64,000 bases of DNA from Bacteroidia bacterium (GCA_016786925.1 JAEUTU010000026.1:18044-82043); one strand, 5' to 3'. Shown: positions 952 to 50,532, counted from the first letter of the stretch. Made by a program: numbers and translations. The notes: generated by a model from the sequence alone, not told the origin.

Positions 952-2340
952 TTACATATGAATTACTTCACCGTATGCAGCAGCAGCTGCTTCCATTACA
1001 GCTTCACTCATCGTAGGGTGAGGGTGAACCGTTTTGATCAATTCATGACCAGTCGTTTCTAATTTTCTGATCGCTACGATCTCTGCTATCATTTCAGTAA
1101 CGTTTGCACCGATCATATGAGCACCTAATAATTCGCCATATTTCGCATCAAAGATCAATTTCACAAATCCATCTTTTGCACCCGCTGCACTTGCCTTCCC
1201 GCTGGCAGAGAATGGGAATTTACCGATCTTTAATTCGTATCCGGCTTCTTTCGCTTTTGCTTCAGTCATACCAACTGATGCGATCTCCGGTTGGCAATAG
1301 GTACAGCCCGGAATGTTGTTATAATCCAATGGCTCCGGATGGTGCCCTGCAATTTTCTCCACACAAATAATTCCTTCTGCTGAAGCAACGTGTGCCAATG
1401 CTTGTCCGCCTACACAGTCGCCAATAGCGTAATATCCCGGAATGTTTGTTTGATAATATGGATTCGTCAATATTTTTCCTTTGTCGGTTGCAATACCGGT
1501 TTCTTCTAAACCAATATTTTCAATGTTTGCCTGAATACCTACAGCAGAAAGTACGATCTCGGCATCAACGATCTTTTCACCCGTTTTAGTTTTGATCTTC
1601 ACTTTGCAATCTGCTCCTTTGGTATCAACACTTTCTACACTTGATTCAACCATCACATCAATACCGATCTTTTTGAATGAACGCTCCAATTGTTTTGATA
1701 CTTCTGTATCTTCTACAGGAACAATTCCCGGCATGAATTCTACCAATGTTACTTTGGTTCCCATAGTTGCATAGAAATAAGCAAACTCACTTCCAATAGC
1801 ACCGGAACCAACAACTACCATTGATTTAGGAAGTTTAGGTAGTGTCAATGCTTCACGGTAACCAATGATTTTTTCCCCATCTTGTGGTAAGTTTGGTAAC
1901 TGGCGTGAACGTGCGCCTGTGGCGATGATGATATTTTTAGCTTCTACTGTACTTACTTTTCCATCTGCAGCAGTCACTTCTACCTTTTTACCCGGCTTCA
2001 CTTTTCCTGTTCCATTAATGATGTCGATCTTGTTCTTTTTCATTAAGAACTGAACGCCTTTGCTCATTCCATCTGCTACGTCACGACTACGTTTTACAAC
2101 TGCTCCAAAATCAGCTTCTCCACCTTTTACAGTAATTCCATAATCGGAAGCATGATTTAAATATTCAAATACTTGTGCGCTCTTTAATAAGGCTTTTGTT
2201 GGAATACAGCCCCAATTCAAGCAAATACCACCAAGGTTTTCACGCTCAATAACTGCTGTTTTTAAACCCAATTGTGAAGCTCTGATTGCAGCAACATATC
2301 CACCAGGACCGCTACCTAAAACTACTAGATCGTAACTCAT
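952..2340 (-). CDS. lpdA: Dihydrolipoyl dehydrogenase (E3 component)
   Basis: N-terminal FAD motif VVLGSGPGGYVAAIRASQLG. Redox-active disulfide GGICLNWGCIPTK. C-terminal dimerisation/His-Pro-Glu region HPHPTMSE. Length 462 aa. Confidence 0.9.
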   Translation of the reverse strand: MSYDLVVLGSGPGGYVAAIRASQLGLKTAVIERENLGGICLNWGCIPTKALLKSAQVFEYLNHASDYGITVKGGEADFGAVVKRSRDVADGMSKGVQFLMKKNKIDIINGTGKVKPGKKVEVTAADGKVSTVEAKNIIIATGARSRQLPNLPQDGEKIIGYREALTLPKLPKSMVVVGSGAIGSEFAYFYATMGTKVTLVEFMPGIVPVEDTEVSKQLERSFKKIGIDVMVESSVESVDTKGADCKVKIKTKTGEKIVDAEIVLSAVGIQANIENIGLEETGIATDKGKILTNPYYQTNIPGYYAIGDCVGGQALAHVASAEGIICVEKIAGHHPEPLDYNNIPGCTYCQPEIASVGMTEAKAKEAGYELKIGKFPFSASGKASAAGAKDGFVKLIFDAKYGELLGAHMIGANVTEMIAEIVAIRKLETTGHELIKTVHPHPTMSEAVMEAAAAAYGEVIHM

Positions 2341-5802: not shown

Positions 5803-8346
5803 CTAGTAAGCATAATCATACCAGTCTTTTCTTCTGCTCAATTTCAGGTCGCGCAAAACAGATGATTTTACATTAATATCGATCGAAAAACTCTGACGGA
5901 ATCCGAATGGAACCCAATTGAAATGCATTTCCCAGCAATGCAGATCGCGATACACATTGATAGATGTCAGAGTCATTTCTTTTCTTGTAAAATCATACCC
6001 GGATGTAACACTTACTTTCCATTTTTTAGTAATACTCAAGTCGCCATTAAATGTGAGCGACTGCGTATATTGGTCATTCAAGACATAAACAATAGATGAT
6101 CCCACCAATTCCTGTTTCACCACTTTGGCATATTGTACATTGTAATATACATTTAAACTCCATGGTATGCTATAATCGACATAGGCATTCGGATTTTTGT
6201 TGATATAATCCAACTCATCCGGTGTTGCCAGTTTACTTGTTTTGTTTTGATTGTTATTCTCTTTGCTTCTTAGGCTCGTGCTTACCGATAAATTCGCATT
6301 GGTCAATCGGCCGATCCGTCCATTGTTCCACTCAAACCGTTCTATTCGTGTTCCGGTAGAATCGATCTGGTATGGATCAAAAATAGCAATGGTATTGATA
6401 TCAAAAAGGCGGAATAATTTTGTTCTTGCATTCAAGTTGATCGTACTCCATTGATAATTTTTGGCAGCCATATTATAACTGAAAGCGACACCTAAATTAT
6501 CCAATAAGGATGTTTTGCGATATACACTTCCGGAATCCGTTTGTATCTTTTTCTTTGCTTCCAATGTATTGTTCAATGTAAAACCGATCAAGCCGGATCT
6601 TCCTGCTCCCGGTGAGCCATATACTCCGTTTTGAAAAATGGAGTATTGCTGGTAATTACCCAAATTATCGCTTTGTACACTTTGGTAATAACCATACTGA
6701 TTTTCAGAGAAATCGGGACGGTAACTGGCAGTAATGGTTGGAGTGGCTACATGGCGGATCTGTTTTAAACGTTTGGTCTTAAAATAATAATCACCATAGA
6801 TTCGAGTGGTCAAACCTGCACTTGCATTGAAATCGTTCGCCACCTGAGCTCCCGTTAAAGTATCCGTAAAAATAGCATTCACATTCGGATCGTATCTCTT
6901 ACGGATGGTTTGAAAATAAACCGTACTGGAAGTGTTGATCGTTGGAGTGAGTGTAAAATATTTTAAAATGTTTAATGATGTACTGATCGGGACATTTAAA
7001 CGGGCACCATTCCGCATCTTACCAAGTGTCTGGTTGGTGAATAACAATGAATCGTAAGTGTTGATGTCGTTTCTGGCATTAGCAGTTGCGCTGATACCGA
7101 TCTTATCATACCATCTTGGTTTTACACTGTTCTTATTTTTAAACGGATAGATCCTGTTCATGGTCAATGCTAATTCCGGCAAACTGATGTCCATCTTTTT
7201 GGTGATGGTGTTCTGACTATGACGTGCATTAGCTGAGAAATTGAAAGGTGTTCCTGTAAATGATTTGGAATACGAAACATTTGATTGAAAGGTATTGGAT
7301 AGATAATCGCCTGTTACGCCACCATTGTATTTGTTAAAAGAGCTGCTTCCTGCATTCACATTCGCGGAAAAGCGACTAGAAGGATGTGCTTTCATATCCT
7401 GCTGATGATTCCAGCGGATAAAAAAATCGTTCCTGGTAATGGAATTGGGTAATTCTCTGTCGCCTTCAATGATCCTTGAATAGCTTAAATTCAAGTTTCC
7501 ATTGTACTTATACCGTTTTTTATAATTGGTGTTTGTCTTTGCTCCAAAACTTCCATTGGCATAAATACTTCCTAATAGAGCAAGATCGAAATATTCATTC
7601 TTTCCAAAATAAAAACCGCCATCTCTTAAAAAGAATCCGAGATTGTTCGACTCACCATATGTTGGAATAATAATACCCGATGCTCTTCCTTTTTTGTTGG
7701 GGAAGTATCCGAAAGGGATGGCCAATGGAGTGGGTATGTCGGCAATGTAAAGCATGGCAGGGCCTGTAACGATCTTGTCATCAGGGATCACTTTGATCTT
7801 TTTAGCGCCAATATAAAAATGAGGGTGATCCAGATCGCAGGTGGTGTATTTCCCGTGTCCTACATAATACGTATTGTTCGTATCCTTTTTAATGTCTCTA
7901 CCATGAATATAGCCTTCACCTTGTTGAGTGATCACATCTTTGATCTTTCCTTTTTTAGTATTGAAGTTATAGGTGATCTCCCCGGCATCATACTTCCCAT
8001 CTTTATTTGAAAAAACAGGTGTTTGCGTCATCTTTCCTGCACTATCTTTTGTGCCCGATGCATGCACTAAATTGTTCTTGAAGTCAATTTCAATATAGCC
8101 GGCATTCATCTTCATGTCTTCATACAAAACCTCGGCATTATTAAAAAGGTATGCTTTTTGATTTACCATGTCTATAAGCATGGAATCAGTTGCAGTATAT
8201 TTTACTTTTTCATTTAAAAAGGAGCTTCCCGACTTTTTAATGGTATCGGCAGGAGAGGATAAAGCAGAAAATGCGAATCCATTACTTGTTGCACTTATTA
8301 ACAAGCAAAGGAGGATAAAAAAAGATCTACTGAAAATTAAACGCAA
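5803..8346 (-). CDS. LPS-assembly LptD/OstA-like outer membrane protein
   Basis: 847 aa with a signal peptide. The N-terminal OstA-like segment is DSMLIDMVNQKAYLFNNAEVLYEDMKMNAGYIEIDF. The long, Tyr/Asn/Ser-rich rest is typical of Bacteroidota LptD. Confidence 0.6.
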   Translation of the reverse strand: MRLIFSRSFFILLCLLISATSNGFAFSALSSPADTIKKSGSSFLNEKVKYTATDSMLIDMVNQKAYLFNNAEVLYEDMKMNAGYIEIDFKNNLVHASGTKDSAGKMTQTPVFSNKDGKYDAGEITYNFNTKKGKIKDVITQQGEGYIHGRDIKKDTNNTYYVGHGKYTTCDLDHPHFYIGAKKIKVIPDDKIVTGPAMLYIADIPTPLAIPFGYFPNKKGRASGIIIPTYGESNNLGFFLRDGGFYFGKNEYFDLALLGSIYANGSFGAKTNTNYKKRYKYNGNLNLSYSRIIEGDRELPNSITRNDFFIRWNHQQDMKAHPSSRFSANVNAGSSSFNKYNGGVTGDYLSNTFQSNVSYSKSFTGTPFNFSANARHSQNTITKKMDISLPELALTMNRIYPFKNKNSVKPRWYDKIGISATANARNDINTYDSLLFTNQTLGKMRNGARLNVPISTSLNILKYFTLTPTINTSSTVYFQTIRKRYDPNVNAIFTDTLTGAQVANDFNASAGLTTRIYGDYYFKTKRLKQIRHVATPTITASYRPDFSENQYGYYQSVQSDNLGNYQQYSIFQNGVYGSPGAGRSGLIGFTLNNTLEAKKKIQTDSGSVYRKTSLLDNLGVAFSYNMAAKNYQWSTINLNARTKLFRLFDINTIAIFDPYQIDSTGTRIERFEWNNGRIGRLTNANLSVSTSLRSKENNNQNKTSKLATPDELDYINKNPNAYVDYSIPWSLNVYYNVQYAKVVKQELVGSSIVYVLNDQYTQSLTFNGDLSITKKWKVSVTSGYDFTRKEMTLTSINVYRDLHCWEMHFNWVPFGFRQSFSIDINVKSSVLRDLKLSRRKDWYDYAY

Positions 8347-33669: not shown

Positions 33670-34296
33670 ATGATAACAGACAGCGCTAAGATCAGTATTC
33701 CGAACATCGATAATGAGATGAAACAACAGTTAATGGACAACGGTACCATTAAGAATTTCAAAGCAGGAGATGTTATTTTGCAGGAGAACAGTTATATCAA
33801 GACACTTCCTATTGTATTACAGGGAAGTCTGAAAGTAATGCGTGAGGAAGAAGACGGAAAAGAGATCCTGTTATACTATATCAAAGCGGGTGAGACCTGT
33901 GTGATGTCGTTCCTTGGTGGTATCAGCAATGATAAAAGTAAAGTGAAAGCTGTTGTGGAGGAAGATTCAGAGATCTTGTTGATCCCGATTCATAATGCGC
34001 AGGACTGGGTGTCGAAATATCCTTCCTGGTGCGATTTTATATTCAAATTATATCACAAACGTTTCGAAGAGCTTTTGTCGGTGGTGAATGCCATGGCTTT
34101 TCAAAAGATCGATCAGCGTATTGTGGAATTACTTAATAAAAAATATCAGCTTACCGGTAATAAAGAGATCAGTGTTACGCATCAGCAGCTGGCCGATGAG
34201 TTAGGCACTGCCCGTGAGGTGGTTTCCCGCCTTTTAAAACAACTTGAAAGAGAAAAAAAGATCAGTCTTTCCCGCAATAAGATCACTATTTTATAG
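33670..34296 (+). CDS. Crp/Fnr family transcriptional regulator
   Basis: N-terminal cNMP-binding beta-roll. C-terminal HTH (THQQLADELGTAREVVSRLLKQLE). 208 aa. Confidence 0.8.
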   Translation: MITDSAKISIPNIDNEMKQQLMDNGTIKNFKAGDVILQENSYIKTLPIVLQGSLKVMREEEDGKEILLYYIKAGETCVMSFLGGISNDKSKVKAVVEEDSEILLIPIHNAQDWVSKYPSWCDFIFKLYHKRFEELLSVVNAMAFQKIDQRIVELLNKKYQLTGNKEISVTHQQLADELGTAREVVSRLLKQLEREKKISLSRNKITIL

Positions 34297-34675: not shown

Positions 34676-34957
34676 ATGAAATTAGATGAATTAATTAAAT
34701 CGAACAAAGCTACGATCGTAGATGTTCGTACACGTGAAGAATTTAGAGGTGGTAATGTAGCAGGATCGATCAACATTCCTTTGAATGAGATCCCGCAACG
34801 TATGGATGAATTGAAAGCCATCGAACAACCGATCGTATTGTGCTGTTTATCGGGTGGAAGAAGCGGCCAGGCAACCATGTATTTGATGCAACAAGGTTTC
34901 AAAGATGTGCACAATGGTGGTTCATGGTTAGATGTAAATTATTATAAAAACAACTAA
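34676..34957 (+). CDS. Single-domain rhodanese (sulfurtransferase)
   Basis: Active-site loop CCLSGGRSGQA with catalytic Cys. 93 aa. Confidence 0.85.
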   Translation: MKLDELIKSNKATIVDVRTREEFRGGNVAGSINIPLNEIPQRMDELKAIEQPIVLCCLSGGRSGQATMYLMQQGFKDVHNGGSWLDVNYYKNN

Positions 34958-34967
34958 GAAAACAGAT

Positions 34968-35279
34968 ATGTTAGACGGAATTAAAAAACTATTCGGGATG
35001 GGTCCTAAAGTGGACTTGGGCGAATTAATAAAAAATGGTGCTATTATCCTGGATGTGCGTAGCAAAGGTGAATATGCAGGCGGACATGTAAAAGGTTCGA
35101 TCAATATTCCACTGGATCAATTGGGTAGCAACCTTGCTAAATTGAAAAAAGATAAAGTGATCATCACGTGTTGCGCTTCCGGTATGAGAAGCGGTGCAGC
35201 CAAAGGTCAGCTGAAAAGCAAAGGCTACGAGGTACACAATGGTGGCAGCTGGATGAGTGTTAACCGTTACGTAAAATAA
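34968..35279 (+). CDS. Single-domain rhodanese (sulfurtransferase)
   Basis: Active-site loop CCASGMRSGAA. 103 aa. Paralog of the upstream gene. Confidence 0.85.
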   Translation: MLDGIKKLFGMGPKVDLGELIKNGAIILDVRSKGEYAGGHVKGSINIPLDQLGSNLAKLKKDKVIITCCASGMRSGAAKGQLKSKGYEVHNGGSWMSVNRYVK

Positions 35280-35280
35280 A

Positions 35281-35529
35281 ATGTCGTTCTTCTCTTTCCT
35301 TTCCGGATGGAATGTTGTCCGCATACTTCGTTTGTTCATAGGGCTGGCTGCTTTGGCAGCCGCCTATTATGAGCACGATAAGTTAATGGGCTTGCTGGGA
35401 GCGGTATTCACTGCTCAGGCAGTTTTTAATGTGGGATGTTGCGGCATGTCGGCTTGTTCGACAGATGCCTACAGGAAACCCGGAATGGAAGAAAAAGAAA
35501 TAGAATTTGAAACAATAAAAAAAGATTAA
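35281..35529 (+). CDS. DUF2892-like small membrane protein with Cys cluster
   Basis: 82 aa, [17 protein letters not shown]...GCCGMSAC. Topology similar to 34389..34595. Confidence 0.5.
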
Positions 35530-35534
35530 AAACC

Positions 35535-35831
35535 ATGGCAACATTTAATGAAATTATAAATTCGGATAAACCCGTGTTGGTTGATTTTTCAGCCGAGTGG
35601 TGCGGTCCTTGCAAAATGATGGCGCCTATCTTGAAAGACTTGGCAGGCCAGGTGGGTGATAATGCCAGCATCTTAAAAGTAGATGTGGATAAGAATCCAA
35701 AAGCAGCAAGTGCTTATCACATACAAGGTGTACCAACCTTGATCCTATTTAAAAATGGTGAAGTGAAATGGCGCCAATCAGGCGTTGTTCCTGCCGAAAA
35801 ACTAAAACAAATCATAGACTTACATTCATAA
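35535..35831 (+). CDS. trxA: Thioredoxin
   Basis: WCGPCK active site, 98 aa. Confidence 0.9.
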
Positions 35832-36586
35832 TGAAAAAGAACAAATTTAAAATAGCGGGAATTTTATTCCTTGTGTTGACAGCAGCTTTTACTTCTTGTA
35901 AACAAGGTGCTAACCAGAATGGTGTGGGTGGAACGATCTCAGCCGATGAGTTCGAGAAAAAGTTAGCTGCCACTGAAAATGCACAGATAGCGGACGTTCG
36001 TACTCCCGGAGAATATTCCGAAGGACATATTAAAAATGCATTGAACATCAATTGGAATGGCGATTCGTTTGAAGCCGACATCCAAAAGATGGATAAGAAT
36101 AAACCTGTATTTGTGTATTGTTTATCAGGCGGAAGAAGCTCCAGTGCTGTAAGCAAAATGGTAGCCTTAGGTTTTAAAGAGATCTATGAATTAGACGGTG
36201 GAATGCGTGCCTGGTACAATGGCAATAAGCCGGTAGATACTGGGAATGCAGCTCCTGCAGCTCCAGGTCAGGAAAAGCCACAAGGAATGAGCTTGACGGA
36301 ATATGAGAAAATATTAAGTACCGATAAATTGGTATTGGTTGATTTTAATGCGGTATGGTGTGCACCCTGCAAACAAATGTCGCCTTGGTTGGATGAAATT
36401 GCAGCTGACATGAAAGATAAAGTGGTAGTGTTAAAATTGGACGTGGAAGAGAACAAGCAGATCGCAGATATGTTGCAGGTTGAAAATTTACCAACCCTAT
36501 TGCTTTATAAAAATGGTAAGGTAGTTTGGAACGGTGAAGGCTTAACATTGAAAGACGTGATCGTGGATGCGATCAATAAAAACTAA
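35831..36586 (+). CDS. Lipoprotein with N-terminal rhodanese domain fused to C-terminal thioredoxin domain
   Basis: Lipobox LTAAFTSCKQ. Rhodanese loop YCLSGGRSSSAV. Thioredoxin WCAPCKQM. ATG at 35831 chosen. Confidence 0.75.
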   Translation: MKKNKFKIAGILFLVLTAAFTSCKQGANQNGVGGTISADEFEKKLAATENAQIADVRTPGEYSEGHIKNALNINWNGDSFEADIQKMDKNKPVFVYCLSGGRSSSAVSKMVALGFKEIYELDGGMRAWYNGNKPVDTGNAAPAAPGQEKPQGMSLTEYEKILSTDKLVLVDFNAVWCAPCKQMSPWLDEIAADMKDKVVVLKLDVEENKQIADMLQVENLPTLLLYKNGKVVWNGEGLTLKDVIVDAINKN

Positions 36587-36590
36587 GGAT

Positions 36591-37031
36591 ATGGCAAACG
36601 AACATTATTACGATATCGATCTTGTATGGAGATCGGATCGCATGGGAGAAGTGAGTTCTCCTGTATTGAATGAAAAAATTGAAGTGGTAACTCCTCCTGA
36701 ATTTCCGAAAGGAATTGCAGGGAAATGGTCGCCCGAACACTTTTTCACTGCAGCTGTTTCCAGCTGTTTTATGACCACCTTCTTAGCGGTTGCCGAAAAT
36801 TCTAAATTGGAATTTGTAAGTCTGGAAGTAAAAGCAAAAGGAAAATTAGAAATGGTGGAAGGCAAATACATGATGAGTGAAGTAGAGCTGAAACCTGAGT
36901 TGGTGATTGCCAAACAAGATGATCAGGAAAGAGCATTACGTATTTTAAATAAATCGGAAGTGGCTTGTTTGATCTCTAATTCCATCAAATCGAAGATCGT
37001 ATTTGTTCCTGAAATTTTAATAAAAAATTAA
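36591..37031 (+). CDS. OsmC/Ohr family peroxiredoxin-like protein
   Basis: Two conserved Cys in the OsmC arrangement (SSCFMTT ... EVACLIS). About 146 aa. Confidence 0.65.
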   Translation: MANEHYYDIDLVWRSDRMGEVSSPVLNEKIEVVTPPEFPKGIAGKWSPEHFFTAAVSSCFMTTFLAVAENSKLEFVSLEVKAKGKLEMVEGKYMMSEVELKPELVIAKQDDQERALRILNKSEVACLISNSIKSKIVFVPEILIKN

Positions 37032-38734: not shown

Positions 38735-39145
38735 ATGAAGTTGATTCTGGCTTTATTCTTCTCTTTACAGATCATCACAAACAATGCGTTTGTGGAGGAT
38801 ATCGCCCGTATTCCCTCTTTAATTCACCATTACGAACATCATCAGCACGAAGAAACTCCGGGAATTTCTTTCCTTGACTTTATTGCCATGCATTATACTA
38901 CTAATGCAGTTGCTGATACCGATGCAGTTGCTGATACCGATGCCGATCACCATTCATTGCCTTTGAAACATGCCAATGATGCCGGACATGTGCATTTAAT
39001 TCCTGCTTTTACAATTCCTGAGTCTCAATCAGGACTTTCTGTTGTTTACACAGAAGTAGAACATTTTACGTATTACCCTGAATTCATTCCAAACCACAAT
39101 TTGGATGCGATCTTTCAGCCGCCTAAGACTTCTATCTTATCTTAA
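38735..39145 (+). CDS. His-rich small secreted protein upstream of the metal efflux pump (putative metal-binding)
   Basis: Signal peptide, HHYEHHQHEE cluster and a tandem AVADTD repeat. Internal ATG chosen. Confidence 0.5.
   Translation: MKLILALFFSLQIITNNAFVEDIARIPSLIHHYEHHQHEETPGISFLDFIAMHYTTNAVADTDAVADTDADHHSLPLKHANDAGHVHLIPAFTIPESQSGLSVVYTEVEHFTYYPEFIPNHNLDAIFQPPKTSILS
38906..38941 (+). repeat. Perfect 18-bp tandem repeat x2 (gcagttgctgataccgat) inside the CDS
   Basis: Direct reading of the sequence. Encodes AVADTD-AVADTD. Confidence 0.9.
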
Positions 39146-39201: not shown

Positions 39202-42200
39202 ATGTTAAATAAGATCATAGAATTTTCTGTGAAGAATAAACTTATAATAGGTTTATTCATCATCGCATTGATCGCTTATGGTAGCTATCAGTTTACCAAA
39301 TTACCGATCGATGCCGTACCCGATATTACTAATAATCAGGTGCAAGTAATTACCGTTGCTCCTTCTTTGGGTGCAACCGACATTGAACGTTTGATCACAT
39401 TCCCGATCGAATTAGCCAATAGCAATATCTCCGGTTTGCACGAGATCAGAAGTTTTTCACGCTTCGGACTTTCCATCGTAACCATCGTTTTTGATGATGA
39501 TATTGATGTGTATTGGGCACGACAACAAGTGGCGGAACGATTGCAACAAGTGCAAGATGAGTTGCCAAAAGGTGTAGCGAACGTGTCATTGGGTCCCGTA
39601 ACTACCGGACTTGGCGAGATCTATCAATATTCTGTTCGTGCAAAAGAAGGCTACGAGCATAAGTACGATGCCATGGAACTCCGCACCATTCAGGATTGGG
39701 TAGTTAGACGACAATTGTTAGGAGTAAAAGGTGTTGCGGATGTGAGTAGTTTCGGAGGGAAGTTAAAACAATATGAGATCGCGGTAGAGCCGGCAAAGTT
39801 AAAAGCATATAACATCACCATTAACGATGTGTTTGCTGCACTTGAGAGTAATAACCAGAACACCGGTGGCGCCTACATCGAAAAAGGTCCAACCGTGCTG
39901 TATATCCGTAGCGAAGGGTTGGTAGGCAGTGTGGACGATATCAAGTCGGTCTTCATTAAAAATACTTCTAATGGAACACCGCTGTTAATCCGTGATGTGG
40001 CCGATGTACGTTATGGATACGCTACCCGTTATGGCGCTATGTGTTATAACGATAAAGGAGAAGTGGCAGGCGCTGTGGTGATGATGCTAAAAGGGGAGAA
40101 CAGCAGCGAAGTGATCAAAAATGTAAAAGAACGTGTGGCGAAGATCCAGAAAACATTACCCGAAGGTGTAGTGCTGGAGCCCTTTTTGGATCGTACCAAA
40201 ATGGTAAACAATGCTATTGGTACGGTGGAGACCAATTTGATTGAAGGTGCTTTGATCGTATTGTTTGTATTGGTTCTGTTTTTAGGTAACATCAGAGCAG
40301 GTTTACTCGTGGCATCGGTCATTCCTTTAGCCATGTTATTTGCCATCATCCTCATGAATTTGTTTGGCGTGAGTGGTAACCTGATGAGTTTAGGTGCGCT
40401 GGACTTTGGTTTGATCATTGACGGAGCGGTTATTATTGTCGAAGCCTTGTTGCATACCATTCAACACAATAAAAAACTAACGGCAGGCTCCGTGATGAGT
40501 TCTTCCGAAATGGATTCGCAAGTGAAACATTCAGCAGGTAAAATGATGAACAGTGCGGTCTTCGGACAGATCATCATTCTGGTTGTGTATCTGCCGATCT
40601 TTTTTCTGGAAGGGATCGAAGGAAAGATGTTCAAGCCCATGGTTCAAACCGTTGTGTTTGCCTTGTTAGGTGCATTTGTTTTATCATTGACCTATGTGCC
40701 GATGATGAGTGCTTTGATCATCAGCAAAAAGATCAGCCACAAGAAAACTTTTTCGGATAGAATGATCGAGTGGATAGAGCGTAAATATCAAAAAGCCTTA
40801 GAAAAAGTATTAGCATTTCCGAAAGTGGTGATCACGACTGCATTATCGCTTTTTGCGATTGCATTATTGGTGCTTTCGAATATGGGTGGTGAATTTATCC
40901 CTGCTTTGGAAGAAGGCGATTTTGCGGTGGAAACACGTGTGCTTACCGGTAGTAATCTAACAACCACCATTGAAAGCACACAACGTGCTGCCAAAATTTT
41001 AAAGGAACGTTTTCCGGAAGTAGAGCAGGTGGTAACAAAGATCGGAAGCGGAGAGATCCCAACCGATCCTATGCCGATGGAAGCTGCCGATATGATGGTG
41101 ATATTAAAAGATAAAAAAGAATGGACCTCTGCGAAGAACTTTCCGGAGTTGTCCGAAAAAATGAGTGCAGCCGTTTCAGAAGTTCCCGGTATCACTACCA
41201 GTTTCCAGTTCCCGGTGCAAATGCGATTCAATGAATTGATGACCGGTGCTAAGCAGGATGTGGTGTGTAAGATATTTGGTGAGAACATGGATACATTGGC
41301 GCGTTATGCTCAGCAGTTAGGCGAAATGGTAGCTACTGTGGAAGGTGCAAAAAATATTTATGTAGAGCCGGTTTCCGGAATGCCACAGGTGATCATTGAA
41401 TACAACCGTGCTGCCATTGCTCAATACGGATTGAATATCATTGATATCAATCGTGTGGTGAATACCGGATTAGCAGGCCAAACCACCGGAGCTGTTTATG
41501 AAGGAGAAAAGAAATTCGACATGGTGGTTCGTTTGGATGGTGAGCAAAGAAAGAATATGGATGATATTAAGAACTTACTCATCCCAACGGCTCAAGGAAC
41601 TCAGATCCCATTGTATCAATTGGCCAATGTAGAGTTAAAAGAAGGTCCAAATCAGATACAACGCGAAGATGCCAAACGCAGGATCATTGTTGGATTTAAT
41701 GTGAAAGATCGTGATGTACAGTCGATCGTAACAGAGCTGCAAAGCAAAGTAGAAAAAGGAATTAAATTCCCTGCAGGTTATTATGTAACTTATGGCGGTG
41801 CATTCGAAAATTTGAATGCTGCCAAAGCCCGCTTGAGTATTACGGTTCCTATTTCATTGTTATTGATCTTCTTGTTGTTGTATTTCTCTTTTAATTCGAT
41901 CAAGCAAGGTTTGTTGATCTACTCTGCCATTCCACTTTCAGCGGTGGGAGGGATCTTTGCCTTGGCATTGCGTGATATGCCTTTCAGCATCTCTGCAGGA
42001 GTGGGCTTCATTGCCTTGTTCGGTGTAGCCGTGTTGAATGGTATCGTATTGATCGCTGAATTCAACCGCTTAAAAGAAGAAGGCTGGAGCGATACACGTA
42101 AGATCGTTTTAATGGGTACCAAGATCCGTTTACGTCCTGTACTCATGACCGCCTTTGTGGCATCCTTAGGCTTTTTGCCGATGGCGATCAGTAACGGTGC

Positions 42201-43563
42201 CGGTGCTGAAGTACAGCGTCCTTTGGCAACAGTGGTGATCGGTGGACTCTTGATCGCAACATTTTTAACTTTATTTGTTTTGCCTACACTCTACATCCTG
42301 TTTGAAAAAGGCTTCGATAAAAAAAGCAAAAAGATCCAACCTGTTTCAGCTATCGTATTGGTAATTGCTGCATGGTCGTTCACTGCATCAACAGCCCATG
42401 CACAACAACCTATTGCTTTAAAAGCAGCTATCGATTCGGCTTATAACAACAACTTATTGCTGAAATCGGATAAGTTGAATGTAGATGCCTATGCTAAATT
42501 GAAACACTCTGCATGGGATCTTCCGCAAACAGAAGTAATAGGAGAGTATGGTCAGGTAAACAGTGCATACACGGATACCAAGTTTGGAATAGCGCAAAGC
42601 TTTAAATTCCCTACGGTGTATCTCAAACAGAAAAGTGTGCTGACGAATGAATGGAAAAATGCGGAGTTGAACTTAGAAGCCAGAAAAGCAGAGTTGAAAA
42701 AAGAAGTGAGTACCACCTATTATGAATTACTTTACACCATGCGTTTAAAAAAGGTGTTGACCGAAACCGACAGCATCTATTCCTTGTTCCTTAAAAATGC
42801 AGAGTTAAAATTCGCAAAAGGAGAAAGCAATATCCTTGAGCGCAACATGGCCGAAGCAGAGCGCGGACAGATCCGCATACAGTTGCAACAGATCGAGATG
42901 GAGTACAATAAACTGCTGAGCGACATGGCTTTGCTCTTGAATACCAAAGTGATCTATGTGCCGGATACAAATGCAGAAGAGTTAAATGCGACTTTGGTTG
43001 CCGATTCATCGTCTATCGCACAGCATCCATTCATCAAACAATTGGAATTGCAAAATGCCATCAGTCGCTCGAAGTTAAAATTGGAAAAAGCGAAGATGCT
43101 TCCCGATCTTTTTGCCGGCTACAATAACATGAGCATCACCGGAGTTGGTGCCGATAATGTGTATTACAGTTCCTCTGCACGTTTTCAGTCTGTTCAGGCT
43201 GGTGTTGGTATTCCATTGTTCTTTGGTGCTCAACGCTCCCGCATCAGTGCCATGAAGATCGATCAGCAGATCTCAGAAAATAATAAGCAGGCGGGAGAAA
43301 TGATGTTTCAGACAAAATATAGAAAAGCAGTGCAGGAGTACAATGCCAATTTGAAAATTGTGGAGTATTATAAAACCACTGCCAATAAAAATGCAGATGA
43401 AACGCTTGTTGCTGCTAACCTGCAATATATGAATGGTAACATCAATTACCTGGAATGGGTTATGCTCAGCAACCAGGTGGTGGCTACCAAAGCAGAATAT
43501 CTGAATGCATTGAGAAAATTGAACAACAGCATAGTTGAAATAAATTACATCACTAATAAGTAA
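39202..43563 (+). CDS. CusA/CzcA-family heavy-metal RND pump fused in-frame to a TolC-like outer membrane factor (OMF)
   Basis: The first roughly 1040 aa are RND permease, with 12 TM segments and two large periplasmic loops. A linker and hydrophobic segment follow (VSAIVLVIAAWSFTASTAHA). The last roughly 390 aa form an OMF/TolC-like domain with coiled-coil repeats. Confidence 0.8.
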   Translation: MLNKIIEFSVKNKLIIGLFIIALIAYGSYQFTKLPIDAVPDITNNQVQVITVAPSLGATDIERLITFPIELANSNISGLHEIRSFSRFGLSIVTIVFDDDIDVYWARQQVAERLQQVQDELPKGVANVSLGPVTTGLGEIYQYSVRAKEGYEHKYDAMELRTIQDWVVRRQLLGVKGVADVSSFGGKLKQYEIAVEPAKLKAYNITINDVFAALESNNQNTGGAYIEKGPTVLYIRSEGLVGSVDDIKSVFIKNTSNGTPLLIRDVADVRYGYATRYGAMCYNDKGEVAGAVVMMLKGENSSEVIKNVKERVAKIQKTLPEGVVLEPFLDRTKMVNNAIGTVETNLIEGALIVLFVLVLFLGNIRAGLLVASVIPLAMLFAIILMNLFGVSGNLMSLGALDFGLIIDGAVIIVEALLHTIQHNKKLTAGSVMSSSEMDSQVKHSAGKMMNSAVFGQIIILVVYLPIFFLEGIEGKMFKPMVQTVVFALLGAFVLSLTYVPMMSALIISKKISHKKTFSDRMIEWIERKYQKALEKVLAFPKVVITTALSLFAIALLVLSNMGGEFIPALEEGDFAVETRVLTGSNLTTTIESTQRAAKILKERFPEVEQVVTKIGSGEIPTDPMPMEAADMMVILKDKKEWTSAKNFPELSEKMSAAVSEVPGITTSFQFPVQMRFNELMTGAKQDVVCKIFGENMDTLARYAQQLGEMVATVEGAKNIYVEPVSGMPQVIIEYNRAAIAQYGLNIIDINRVVNTGLAGQTTGAVYEGEKKFDMVVRLDGEQRKNMDDIKNLLIPTAQGTQIPLYQLANVELKEGPNQIQREDAKRRIIVGFNVKDRDVQSIVTELQSKVEKGIKFPAGYYVTYGGAFENLNAAKARLSITVPISLLLIFLLLYFSFNSIKQGLLIYSAIPLSAVGGIFALALRDMPFSISAGVGFIALFGVAVLNGIVLIAEFNRLKEEGWSDTRKIVLMGTKIRLRPVLMTAFVASLGFLPMAISNGAGAEVQRPLATVVIGGLLIATFLTLFVLPTLYILFEKGFDKKSKKIQPVSAIVLVIAAWSFTASTAHAQQPIALKAAIDSAYNNNLLLKSDKLNVDAYAKLKHSAWDLPQTEVIGEYGQVNSAYTDTKFGIAQSFKFPTVYLKQKSVLTNEWKNAELNLEARKAELKKEVSTTYYELLYTMRLKKVLTETDSIYSLFLKNAELKFAKGESNILERNMAEAERGQIRIQLQQIEMEYNKLLSDMALLLNTKVIYVPDTNAEELNATLVADSSSIAQHPFIKQLELQNAISRSKLKLEKAKMLPDLFAGYNNMSITGVGADNVYYSSSARFQSVQAGVGIPLFFGAQRSRISAMKIDQQISENNKQAGEMMFQTKYRKAVQEYNANLKIVEYYKTTANKNADETLVAANLQYMNGNINYLEWVMLSNQVVATKAEYLNALRKLNNSIVEINYITNK

Positions 43564-43569
43564 ACGGTC

Positions 43570-44700
43570 ATGAAAAAATATATAGGAATTTTAGTTTCTG
43601 CAACATTATTAATGTCATGTGGAAACGATACACCAACAGAATCAGCTACAGCTGAACAACCTTTAGAAAGCATCATTCAGTTGACAGATGCGCAATTGAA
43701 AAATTCAAAGATCGCTACAGGCAAATTGGAGAAACGCGCCATCTCTTCAGTATTTAAAGTAAATGGCAGTATCGATGTGCCACCGCAAAACATGGTATCC
43801 ATCAGTGTGCCACTGGGCGGCTTTCTTCGATCCACTAAGTTGTTGCCGGGTATGCATATTTCCAAAGGAGAAGTGATCGCTACCATGGAAGATCAGCAAT
43901 ACATTCAATTGCAGCAGGAGTATTTAACAACACTTTCGGCATTGAAATATTCCGAAGCGGAATATCAACGTCAGAAAGAATTGAATGCCAGCAAAGCATC
44001 CAGCGATAAAGTGTTTCAACAGGCCGAGGCCGATTATAAAGCACAAAAGATCAGTTTACGTTCTCTGTCCGAAAAATTACAATTGATAGGAATTGATCCT
44101 ACTAAATTGGATGAGTCGAATCTTTCCAGAAGCATTTCCATCAAATCGCCTATCGATGGTTATGTGTCGGATGTGTTTGTGAATGTGGGTAAATATGTAA
44201 ATCCATCCGATGTGTTATTTGAGTTGGTGAATCCGGAAGACATTCATTTGGGATTGACCGTGTTTGAAAAGGATCTTTCCAAATTGTATATCGGACAAAA
44301 AGTATTGGCCTATACGAACAATGATCCCGGTAAAAAATATCTGTGTGAGATCATTTTAATTGGTAAGAACCTTTCTGCCGAACGAAGTGTGGAAGTGCAT
44401 TGCCATTTCGATCAATATGATAAATCATTGATCCCGGGCATGTTCATGAATGCCGATGTTGAAGTAAAGAGTCTGGAAGCCATTGCATTGCCCGATGATG
44501 CCATTGTTAATTATGGCAATACGCATTACATCTTCAAGAAAAAGGAAAACACCGTTTTTGAAATGATGGAAGTGCAAATTGGTAATTCTGAATCGGGTTA
44601 CACCGAAGTGCTATTGCCAGAAAAAGACAGGCAATCAGAGTATGTGGTAAAGGATGCGTATACCATTTTAATGAAGAGTAAAAATACGGAAGAAGAATAA
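43570..44700 (+). CDS. RND efflux periplasmic adaptor (CzcB/CusB, HlyD family) lipoprotein
   Basis: Lipobox LLMSCGN. Coiled-coil hairpin and beta-barrel regions. 376 aa. Confidence 0.8.
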   Translation: MKKYIGILVSATLLMSCGNDTPTESATAEQPLESIIQLTDAQLKNSKIATGKLEKRAISSVFKVNGSIDVPPQNMVSISVPLGGFLRSTKLLPGMHISKGEVIATMEDQQYIQLQQEYLTTLSALKYSEAEYQRQKELNASKASSDKVFQQAEADYKAQKISLRSLSEKLQLIGIDPTKLDESNLSRSISIKSPIDGYVSDVFVNVGKYVNPSDVLFELVNPEDIHLGLTVFEKDLSKLYIGQKVLAYTNNDPGKKYLCEIILIGKNLSAERSVEVHCHFDQYDKSLIPGMFMNADVEVKSLEAIALPDDAIVNYGNTHYIFKKKENTVFEMMEVQIGNSESGYTEVLLPEKDRQSEYVVKDAYTILMKSKNTEEE

Positions 44701-44731: not shown

Positions 44732-45193
44732 ATGAAAAAATTAGTCTTCTTATCTTGCTTATTGCTTGGAACATATTCCTATGCACAAAAGGTAAATTCC
44801 GATAATTTGCCTGAACCGGTAAAAACTGCTTTTAAAGCAAAATTTGCAGATGTTAAAAAGGCAAAATGGGAAATGGACTATGAAAATTACGAAGCAGAGT
44901 TCAAATACAATAAGAATGAAATGTCGGCTAAGTTTGATAAAACAGGAAAATGGCTGGAGACGGAATACATGATCCTTCCATCGGATCTGCCTCAAGCGGT
45001 AAAAGAGTATATGAATTCCAACTTTGCAGGTTTTGAAATTAAGGAAGCCGAAAAAGTGGAGACAGCTGATAAAGGCATTTTGTATGAATTAGATATCAAA
45101 AAGGGAGAAGCAAAGTACGAGATCTCCATCTCCGAAACCGGCAAATTGATCAGCCGTACAGATGCGAACTCTGACGAGAAAGCTAAATACTAA
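44732..45193 (+). CDS. PepSY-like (DUF2874) secreted protein
   Basis: Signal peptide. Duplicated LP..VK...KAKFA / LPQAVKEYMNSNFAG segments typical of this family. Confidence 0.55.
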   Translation: MKKLVFLSCLLLGTYSYAQKVNSDNLPEPVKTAFKAKFADVKKAKWEMDYENYEAEFKYNKNEMSAKFDKTGKWLETEYMILPSDLPQAVKEYMNSNFAGFEIKEAEKVETADKGILYELDIKKGEAKYEISISETGKLISRTDANSDEKAKY

Positions 45194-49329: not shown

Positions 49330-50532
49330 ATGAAGAAAGTATCCATTCTTTTCCTTGCCTTATTCAGCATCACGGCTGTGGCTCAGGAGAAAGTAAAAAA
49401 AGACGAGAATACAGTAAAAACAGTTAAAGTAAAAAAGCCGAAGACAATGAAAACAGCATCAGGTTTGGAATATACCATCACCGAAAAAGGAAATGGTAAA
49501 CGTCCACAAATTGGAGATAAAGTAAAAGTACACTACACCGGAAAATTATTGAATGACACCGTATTCGATAGCTCTGTAAAAAGAGGACAACCATTTGAAT
49601 TCAAATTAGGTGCCGGACAAGTGATCAAAGGATGGGATGAAGCATTTCAATTGTTGGATGTAGGCGATAAAGCTACTATCAAATTACCAGCTGATATTGC
49701 TTATGGTAACAGAGCAATGGGTTCTATTCCTCCAAATTCTACTTTGATATTTGATGTGGAATTGATCGACTTTAAAGAAGGTGTTCGTCCTTGGGATGGA
49801 AAAGGGAAAGATACTATCACTACTGCAAGTGGTTTGAAATACATCATCATCAAAGAGAACAAAGCAGGTGAGCAAGTAAAAGCAGGCGCACAGGCAACAG
49901 TTCATTACAGCGGTTATTTCAAAGATGGAAAGATGTTCGATTCTTCTGTGGAGCGCGGACAACCATTCAAAGTAAAAGTGGGTAAAGGACAAGTGATCAA
50001 AGGATGGGACGAAGGATTGGCTTTATTGCGTAAAGGTGAAAAAGCAAAATTATTCATTCCTTATCAATTAGGATATGGCGAGCAAGGTTATGGACCAATA
50101 CCTGCAAAAGCAGAATTGATCTTTGATGTGGAGATAGTAGATGTGCAGGAAGCAATGGTGCCTGTATTGTACGATGTATCTAAATTAGAAGCAAAGAAAA
50201 CAGCGTCCGGCTTAACATACTATGAAGTAAAAAGAAGCGGAAGCACCGTGAAGGCCGAAGCAGGTAAAACAGTGAAAGTACATTACTCCGGTTATTTGGC
50301 CGATGGAAAAATGTTCGATTCTTCCATTGAAAGAGGAGAGCCGATTGAGTTTCCATTAGGACAAGGCATGGTGATCCCGGGATGGGAGGAAGGTATTGCC
50401 TTAATGAATGTAGGTGATAAATTACGTTTGGTGATCCCGTATTACTTAGCGTATGGCGAACAAGGAAGAGAACCGATCATTCCTGCAAAAGCCGACCTTA
50501 CATTTGATGTAGAGTTAGTGGATGTAAAATAA
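49330..50532 (+). CDS. Secreted protein with three tandem FKBP-type PPIase domains
   Basis: Three internally similar repeats, each with V(K/T)VHY(T/S)G.L.DG..FDSS..RG.P.EF.LG.G.VI.GW.E. Confidence 0.8.
   Translation: MKKVSILFLALFSITAVAQEKVKKDENTVKTVKVKKPKTMKTASGLEYTITEKGNGKRPQIGDKVKVHYTGKLLNDTVFDSSVKRGQPFEFKLGAGQVIKGWDEAFQLLDVGDKATIKLPADIAYGNRAMGSIPPNSTLIFDVELIDFKEGVRPWDGKGKDTITTASGLKYIIIKENKAGEQVKAGAQATVHYSGYFKDGKMFDSSVERGQPFKVKVGKGQVIKGWDEGLALLRKGEKAKLFIPYQLGYGEQGYGPIPAKAELIFDVEIVDVQEAMVPVLYDVSKLEAKKTASGLTYYEVKRSGSTVKAEAGKTVKVHYSGYLADGKMFDSSIERGEPIEFPLGQGMVIPGWEEGIALMNVGDKLRLVIPYYLAYGEQGREPIIPAKADLTFDVELVDVK

Follow-up and report, generated by a model that had tools for sequence, protein, structure and literature searches.

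Heavy-metal efflux (HME) pumps of the resistance-nodulation-division (RND) type are tripartite assemblies. The closest described systems, CzcCBA of Cupriavidus metallidurans and CusCBA of E. coli, consist of an HME-RND permease, a membrane-fusion adaptor and a TolC-fold outer membrane channel, and to our knowledge RND pumps have always been described as three separately encoded subunits. In B. thetaiotaomicron, CzcA and TolC-family proteins are encoded by separate adjoining genes (BT2038-40 and BT4694-95; PMC10434189), which we liken to the present locus by that paper's gene listing and not by sequence. Here, we analyzed a stretch of 64,000 nucleotides from a Bacteroidia bacterium (GCA_016786925.1 JAEUTU010000026.1:18044-82043; hereafter, the window), in which a single gene, czcA::omf, encodes both a CusA/CzcA-type pump and a TolC-type outer membrane factor (OMF). 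The locus specifies the same three kinds of component as CzcCBA and CusCBA, but its genes run pump-channel-adaptor instead of C-B-A, a single frame encodes pump and channel, and a small gene for a His-rich protein lies upstream. Furthermore, in contrast to the lipoprotein CusC, the channel has no lipobox cysteine.

The components are standard members of their families; what is unusual is the architecture and the processing that it implies. The internal features described below suggest that the fused protein is probably a polyprotein precursor that would be cut by signal peptidase I into two ordinary subunits. No paper on a natural RND-OMF fusion was found in the open-access full-text literature, although an earlier mention elsewhere is possible, and a search of the accessible part of a 2021 Chem Rev review found no mention of one. 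The architecture is certainly already displayed by domain databases. The fused gene and its parts are as follows.

39202..43563, + strand: czcA::omf fused gene, 1453 codons plus stop, a single uninterrupted frame from ATG (open reading frame [ORF], Pfam, NCBIfam, homolog lengths)
39202..42306 (aa 1-1035), + strand: RND permease, CusA/CzcA type (TIGR00914, ACR_tran, hydropathy, motif in transmembrane segment 4 [TM4])
42307..42402 (aa 1036-1067), + strand: internal signal peptide (motif conservation in 304 homologs, charge, hydropathy)
42403..43563 (aa 1068-1453, 386 aa plus stop), + strand: outer membrane factor, complete TolC-type protomer (OEP twice, AlphaFold2, Foldseek)

A preliminary description of this DNA had proposed an in-frame fusion of a CzcA-type RND pump with a TolC-type OMF, 1453 aa in length, and this was borne out by the single ORF and by its matches to Pfam models and to TIGR00914. 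The strings that it had singled out are present (LYILFEKG from aa 1030 and VSAIVLVIAAWSFTASTAHA at aa 1048-1067), and the roughly 390 C-terminal residues that it had called OMF/TolC-like correspond to the 386 aa that follow the AHA|Q site, which carry two OEP stretches. The ORF thus comprises the RND pump (aa 1-1035), a joint of 32 residues and the OMF (aa 1068-1453). Two antisense ORFs inside the pump gene (40044..40460 and 40788..41288) were treated as mechanical ORFs.

When the whole fused protein was used as a query, the best 120 full-length matches were all 1447-1464 aa long, with 68-96% identity and 100% coverage, a length distribution indicating that the extra length does not stem from a missed stop. 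These matches come from members of Flavobacteriales, Chitinophagales, Sphingobacteriales and Cytophagales. A look-up of the exact protein sequence returned no entry; the closest database protein (P0121) is 96% identical, and among species-level genomes the C-terminal 454 aa find at best 68-69% identity. With aa 1000-1453 as the query, more than 100 proteins bearing PF00873 and PF02321 together were retrieved, from Pedobacter, Ginsengibacter, Taibaiella, Sediminibacterium, Ferruginibacter, Flavobacteriales and others. Genomes, one per species, were also scanned for the channel region; this gave at least 573 matching stretches. The best 80 loci were assessed for continuity of the joint, and 84 related loci for neighboring genes. 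The frame is unbroken across the joint in 77 of the best 80 loci, and 66 of them have at least 1400 codons. Thus, the long versions that had been suspected in some Bacteroidota are in fact the dominant form in the examined clade, as judged from these loci and from the 120 best matches. The best loci belong to Flavobacteriales, Chitinophagales, Sphingobacteriales, Cytophagales and Saprospiraceae, and cultured carriers of the fusion include Flavobacterium silvisoli, F. myungsuense and Chitinophaga sp. RCC_12. That the RND::OMF fusion is genuine is, in our judgment, practically certain.

One further locus among the best matches (L018, contig CAZEWJ010000025.1) is in a metagenome-assembled genome labelled 'uncultured Ignavibacteriaceae' and holds a full fused gene of 1452 codons, 50% identical to the query in the C-terminal region; the gene may have passed horizontally beyond Bacteroidota, or the genome may have been wrongly binned or labelled. 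In a 50%-identity representative library, no protein of ~1450 aa was found among the best 150 for the OMF part, presumably since the clusters holding fused proteins are represented by other members. Because fused proteins are missing among the representatives, this library gives no fused:split ratio, and its lengths would understate fusion; it was the source of stand-alone homologs with which the mature N-termini were compared.

The pump part is a conventional HME-RND permease. It matches Pfam ACR_tran (PF00873) over aa 5-1034 (E 3.7e-280) and NCBIfam TIGR00914 CusA/CzcA over aa 1-1045 (1179.9 bits against a cut-off of 701.45), so that the match to the HME-RND permease family is full length and above the curated cut-off. 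Transmembrane (TM) segments were called by a simple Kyte-Doolittle scan. Hydropathy peaks are found at approximately aa 14-32, 345-363, 367-385, 399-417, 451-469 and 484-502, and again at approximately aa 542-560, 878-896, 904-922, 934-952, 979-997 and 1008-1026, which gives the 12 TM segments and two large periplasmic loops expected of an HME-RND permease. TM4 reads LDFGLIIDGAVIIVEA and contains D401, D407 and E414 (D401-F-G...D407-G-A...V-E414). We take DFG...DGA...VE(N) to be the TM4 proton-relay motif of divalent-cation HME pumps, as defined by Nies 2003 and Goldberg 1999, and the motif here, LDFGLIIDGAVIIVE (D401, D407, E414), is presumably of the divalent-cation Czc type and not of the CusA type (cf. 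Nies 2003). The pump is therefore predicted from its sequence to export a heavy metal, in the form of a divalent cation (Czc-type).

The channel part matches Pfam OEP (PF02321) in two stretches reaching to aa 1452, the best being aa 1271-1452 (E 3.5e-29; 102.4 bits, cut-off 22). When aa 1068-1453 were modelled with AlphaFold2 from 119 aligned sequences, the mean pLDDT was 90.6 and the pTM 0.81. The predicted topology is that of the duplicated TolC unit, in which short helices, a beta-hairpin, a 69-residue helix and a 36-residue helix occur twice (strands 44-50/58-68 and 235-244/260-269; 69-residue helices 70-138 and 275-343). In Foldseek comparisons with the PDB, the model matches TOprJ1, SilC, TolC, CusC, CmeC and OprM over the full length (E 1e-16 to 1e-13, TM 0.74-0.82), with CusC and SilC at E about 2e-16. 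A phmmer search of PDB sequences with the OMF part gave no match, and the solved OMFs are linked to it by fold comparison only. A NodT-type lipoprotein OMF was considered and rejected: position +1 holds no lipobox Cys, and with the NodT model TIGR01845 the score of 18.3 bits is far below the cut-off of 210. The channel is therefore TolC-like and non-lipidated. Its export signal, of the n-h-c type recognized by signal peptidase I and ending in AHA|Q, stands directly before the mature domain, yet is internal.

The joint between the two parts reads ...LYILFE1035 KGFDKKSKKIQP VSAIVLVIAAWSF TASTAHA1067 | Q1068QPIALKAAIDSAYNNN..., in which KGFDKKSKKIQP is the n-region, VSAIVLVIAAWSF the h-region and TASTAHA the c-region of a signal peptide. 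Ahead of the hydrophobic core, the n-region carries a net +4 charge, and the core forms a 13th hydrophobic segment (approximately aa 1047-1065, Kyte-Doolittle) after the 12 of the pump. Signal peptidase I is predicted to cut between A1067 and Q1068, that is, between nt 42402 and 42403. The query linker contains no Met or other plausible start ahead of the hydrophobic core, so the query channel could be produced only via the fusion.

To assess how these features are conserved, the joints of 304 fused homologs (281 unique joints), with OMF parts 43-65% identical to the query, were aligned. The -1 residue is A, S or G in all 304, the -3 residue is small or aliphatic (A/S/V/T/G/L/I) in 303, and the +1 residue is Gln in 303. 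The positions of the h-region, unlike the adjoining residues of the cut site, are freely variable. The n-region is net positive in every unique joint (+1 to +8, median +4), and the hydropathy of the best 10-residue stretch is at least 2.24. The joints are 26-36 residues long, and the median length of their uncharged h+c stretch is 20 residues, which is typical for a signal peptide and short for a stable anchor. Strictly conserved -3, -1 and +1 residues beside a variable h-region argue that the joint is a signal peptide under selection for cleavage. Gln at +1 corresponds to the "Q-rule" for signal peptidase I substrates of Bacteroidetes; in P. gingivalis, more than 60% of these substrates have Gln at +1, which is cyclised to pyroglutamate (PMC5837995). 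The same ending is found in N-terminal signal peptides elsewhere in the window (...SYA|QK at 44732 and ...AVA|QE at 49330).

In RND pumps such as AcrB and CusA, both termini are cytoplasmic. With 12 TM segments before it and a positively charged linker on the cytoplasmic side, the internal signal peptide is expected to insert N-in/C-out and to export the OMF part; it conforms to the -3/-1 rule and is oriented to export what lies downstream. This agrees with the earlier proposal that an old OMF signal peptide serves as a 13th segment returning the chain to the periplasm. The maturation pathway that we propose is that the 12 TM segments of the pump would insert co-translationally, leaving the chain end in the cytoplasm. 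The Lys-rich linker would be kept inside, while the short hydrophobic core would re-enter the membrane and launch export of the 386-residue channel domain. Signal peptidase I would then cut after A1065-H-A1067, releasing a mature channel protomer that begins at Gln1068, a residue that is probably cyclised to pyroglutamate, like that of other exported Bacteroidota proteins. Channel protomers would trimerise in the outer membrane, and the 1067-aa pump would retain the spent signal peptide as a 13th, C-terminal helix. Finally, the pump trimer, the adaptor lipoprotein and the channel trimer would form a normal tripartite pump. As a result of the fusion, pump and channel would necessarily be produced together, 1:1, from a single translation start.

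Bacteroidota relatives in which pump and channel are separate genes allow the mature products to be compared. These split czc loci (L003/L004, L043 and L085-L087) have the same gene order, the same OMF subfamily and the same position of the signal-peptide end as the fused locus, but differ in that a stop and a new ATG lie between pump and channel, which are 24-60 nt apart or have a small ORF inserted between them. In L003 and L004, the two genes are in one frame and are separated by a single TAA and 24 nt, while in L043 they are ~60 nt apart. In L085-L087, the order is small protein, CzcA (1046-1048 aa), OMF, sometimes a CDF transporter, and adaptor. Stand-alone OMFs (397-445 aa) are 35-51% identical to the query OMF part, with alignments starting from query residue 1-4, and their signal peptides end in ...PAQ|T, ...FSQ|S, ...HAQ|T, ...RAQ|S or similar residues at the homologous position (A/S-Q). 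Given the same gene order and the same signal-peptide end, the mature products are expected to be identical in fused and split forms. Moreover, fused and split forms are interleaved by level of similarity. Interconversion thus appears to be easy, which is expected only if the mature products are alike.

The CDF-family transporter of the split operons (Cation_efflux plus ZT_dimer) is encoded between the channel and adaptor genes at 6273..7259 in L085 and at 2529..3515 in L086; its presence links the operon family to divalent-metal export. In other loci, a small unrelated ORF is inserted at the joint (L001, 5403..5780; L036, about 1300..1825; L002, 1..80), encoding a PDDEXK_3 protein in L001 and a short ORF ending in ...NPEKY* in L036 and L002, and the joint seems to be a recurrent insertion point. 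In L001, the czcA 5' of the insert is broken into three fragments. P0117 was considered as an unfused relative and set aside, since it adjoins a decayed, fragmented czcA with a PDDEXK_3 ORF inserted and is therefore no evidence for an ancestral split state.

Apparent fusions can also result from errors of assembly or sequencing, in which a missed stop or a frameshift merges two genes. The joint does contain a candidate position, a homopolymer of seven A at 42319..42325 in the Lys-rich linker (GAT AAA AAA AGC AAA AAG), and when the DNA was read by eye both shifted frames ran into a stop within ~15 codons. However, 77 of 80 independent genomes carry the fusion, as do hundreds of 1447-1464-aa proteins from metagenomes, and their linkers differ; this refutes the explanation and leaves it with a negligible probability. 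Given the stops in both shifted frames, slippage at the A7 run would yield a pump without a channel. The run probably reflects mere Lys codon usage in an AT-rich genome, and no search was made for programmed slippage.

A second alternative, put forward in the preliminary description, is that the 13th helix stays uncleaved and permanently tethers the channel to the pump, which would impose a new assembly geometry. In its favor, the chain is continuous, the topology sets the OMF part in the periplasm, and no experiment demonstrating cleavage was found in the literature. An anchor, however, would not need the -3/-1/+1 motif, yet this signal peptidase I site is conserved across 304 homologs, and the hydrophobic core is short for this role. 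Geometry also argues against a tether. In structures of TolC and AcrAB-TolC, the equatorial domain lies tens of Å below the outer membrane, and in an assembled pump of the AcrAB-TolC type it is roughly 100 Å or more from the inner membrane, above the pump head and the adaptor tube. In the AlphaFold2 model, mature residues 2-4 are already in a strand of the equatorial domain, with no spacer after the cut site. Because the fold starts right after the site and no linker is left, an uncut chain cannot span the periplasm or build a canonical pump. In addition, split operons with an identical mature N-terminus are interleaved among the fused ones. We consider a permanent tether very unlikely, and cleavage into two ordinary subunits far more likely. 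The associated claim that the fusion challenges the 3:6:3 assembly picture also falls away: a 1:1 fusion supplies three pump and three channel protomers, the canonical 3:3 RND:OMF ratio, and so agrees with that picture.

Several points nevertheless weigh against cleavage by signal peptidase I. The signal-peptide call is based on motif statistics and hydropathy, signal peptidase I cleavage after a 12-TM protein is rare in bacteria, and a literature search on processing found neither an N-terminal sequence nor a western blot nor proteomics for any member of this family. Conservation of AxA|Q could be partly inherited and not currently selected, but inheritance is made unlikely by the divergence of the 304 sequences. 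Finally, a Met is kept in the n-region of 83 of the 281 unique joints, and some homologs might also initiate translation internally. This Met, and the fact that no experimental data on cleavage were found, are compatible with processing that is not, or not solely, due to signal peptidase I, such as cleavage by another protease, a partial or regulated cut, or an internal start in some homologs. On the other hand, no such start precedes the hydrophobic core of the query, and conservation falls on precisely the residues by which signal peptidase I sites and the Q-rule are defined. Processing of this other kind is thus unlikely, and a polyprotein cut by signal peptidase I remains the reading that we favor.

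The genes flanking czcA::omf include the adaptor expected of a tripartite pump.

38735..39145, + strand: small His-rich protein, 136 aa (from the Met of MKLILALFF...; mechanical ORF from 38615), in a conserved upstream position
43570..44700, + strand: periplasmic adaptor (membrane-fusion protein, CzcB-like), 376 aa (TIGR01730 RND_mfp, HlyD_D23)
44732..45193, + strand: PepSY-like protein (PF11396, E 4e-14) with a Q-rule signal peptide, 3' of the adaptor gene

The adaptor, correctly anticipated as a separate following czcB gene, begins 7 nt past the stop of the pump gene and scores 132.3 bits with TIGR01730 against a cut-off of 94.9. Its translation shows a lipoprotein signal (...LLMS|C), and 81 of the 84 related loci contain a homolog. 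In contrast, the PepSY-like protein has no homolog in these 84 loci, which places its gene outside the conserved unit. In the small His-rich protein, a hydrophobic segment at the N terminus precedes the motif IPSLIHHYEHHQHEE; a tandem AVADTD-AVADTD is also present, and there is no Pfam or NCBIfam match. By tblastn, a homolog lies immediately 5' of the pump gene in 37 of the 84 loci, and genes of 109-129 aa occupy the same position in the split operons L085 and L087. Its gene looks like the conserved first gene of the unit, and its product may represent an uncharacterised fourth component, possibly a metal-binding or sensing accessory.

Farther upstream, small genes on the + strand at 34676..37031 were tentatively assigned by eye to two rhodanese-like proteins, a thioredoxin (WCGPCK), an OsmC-like protein and a lipoprotein combining rhodanese-like and thioredoxin-like (WCAPCK) parts. 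A putative Crp-like regulator gene is at 33670..34296 (also by eye), and a protein sorted by the type IX secretion system is encoded elsewhere in the window (Pfam), in keeping with an origin in Bacteroidota.

Polyproteins that are cut at internal signal peptides have precedents. The FbcH cytochrome b/c1 precursor of Bradyrhizobium is a polyprotein of this kind, although a literature search for this precedent found nothing. Glycoprotein precursors of flaviviruses and bunyaviruses are likewise cut by signal peptidase at internal signal peptides (PMC7601889, PMC7926653). As in the fused pump, a membrane-spanning upstream part is followed in these precursors by an internal n-h-c signal, through which the downstream part is exported and set free; here, however, the two products would be bound for different membranes of one cell, and the processing is deduced from the features of the joint. 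The Rieske protein of Streptomyces (PMC13186574) is also polytopic, and its internal signal peptide exports a C-terminal domain, but it uses Tat rather than Sec, its signal is uncleaved and the domain stays attached.

The fusion is a widespread arrangement that has been sequenced many times and annotated blandly, and most probably it yields an ordinary tripartite pump. Bacteroidota make little use of Shine-Dalgarno sequences, and one speculative advantage of the fusion is that pump and channel would be co-produced without a second translation start. A broader interpretation, which we offer tentatively and hold to be improbable, is that of a two-membrane polyprotein whose channel is freed beside its partner pump, so that assembly would be coupled in cis both stoichiometrically and spatially; the fusion would then be a natural and widespread bacterial example of processing at an internal signal peptide. 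On this view, the fusion may be adaptive in a phylum with weak internal translation initiation, and the spent signal peptide, retained as a 13th helix, might in addition have an AcrZ-like accessory role.

A large clade of environmental Bacteroidota encodes the pump and its exit channel as a single precursor, as seen in 77 of the 80 best-matching loci. Automatic annotation names such proteins only "CzcA", so the channel is invisible in metal-resistance inventories and efflux systems of Bacteroidota are scored as "lacking an OMF". Should the internal signal peptide indeed be cut, as predicted from the conserved AxA|Q site, the fused protein would be a natural bacterial polyprotein with products in two different membranes, and it would provide a convenient system for studying how outer-membrane factors exit the Sec machinery and find their pump. 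It would also show how a 1:1 stoichiometry can be enforced in a phylum with unusual translation initiation.

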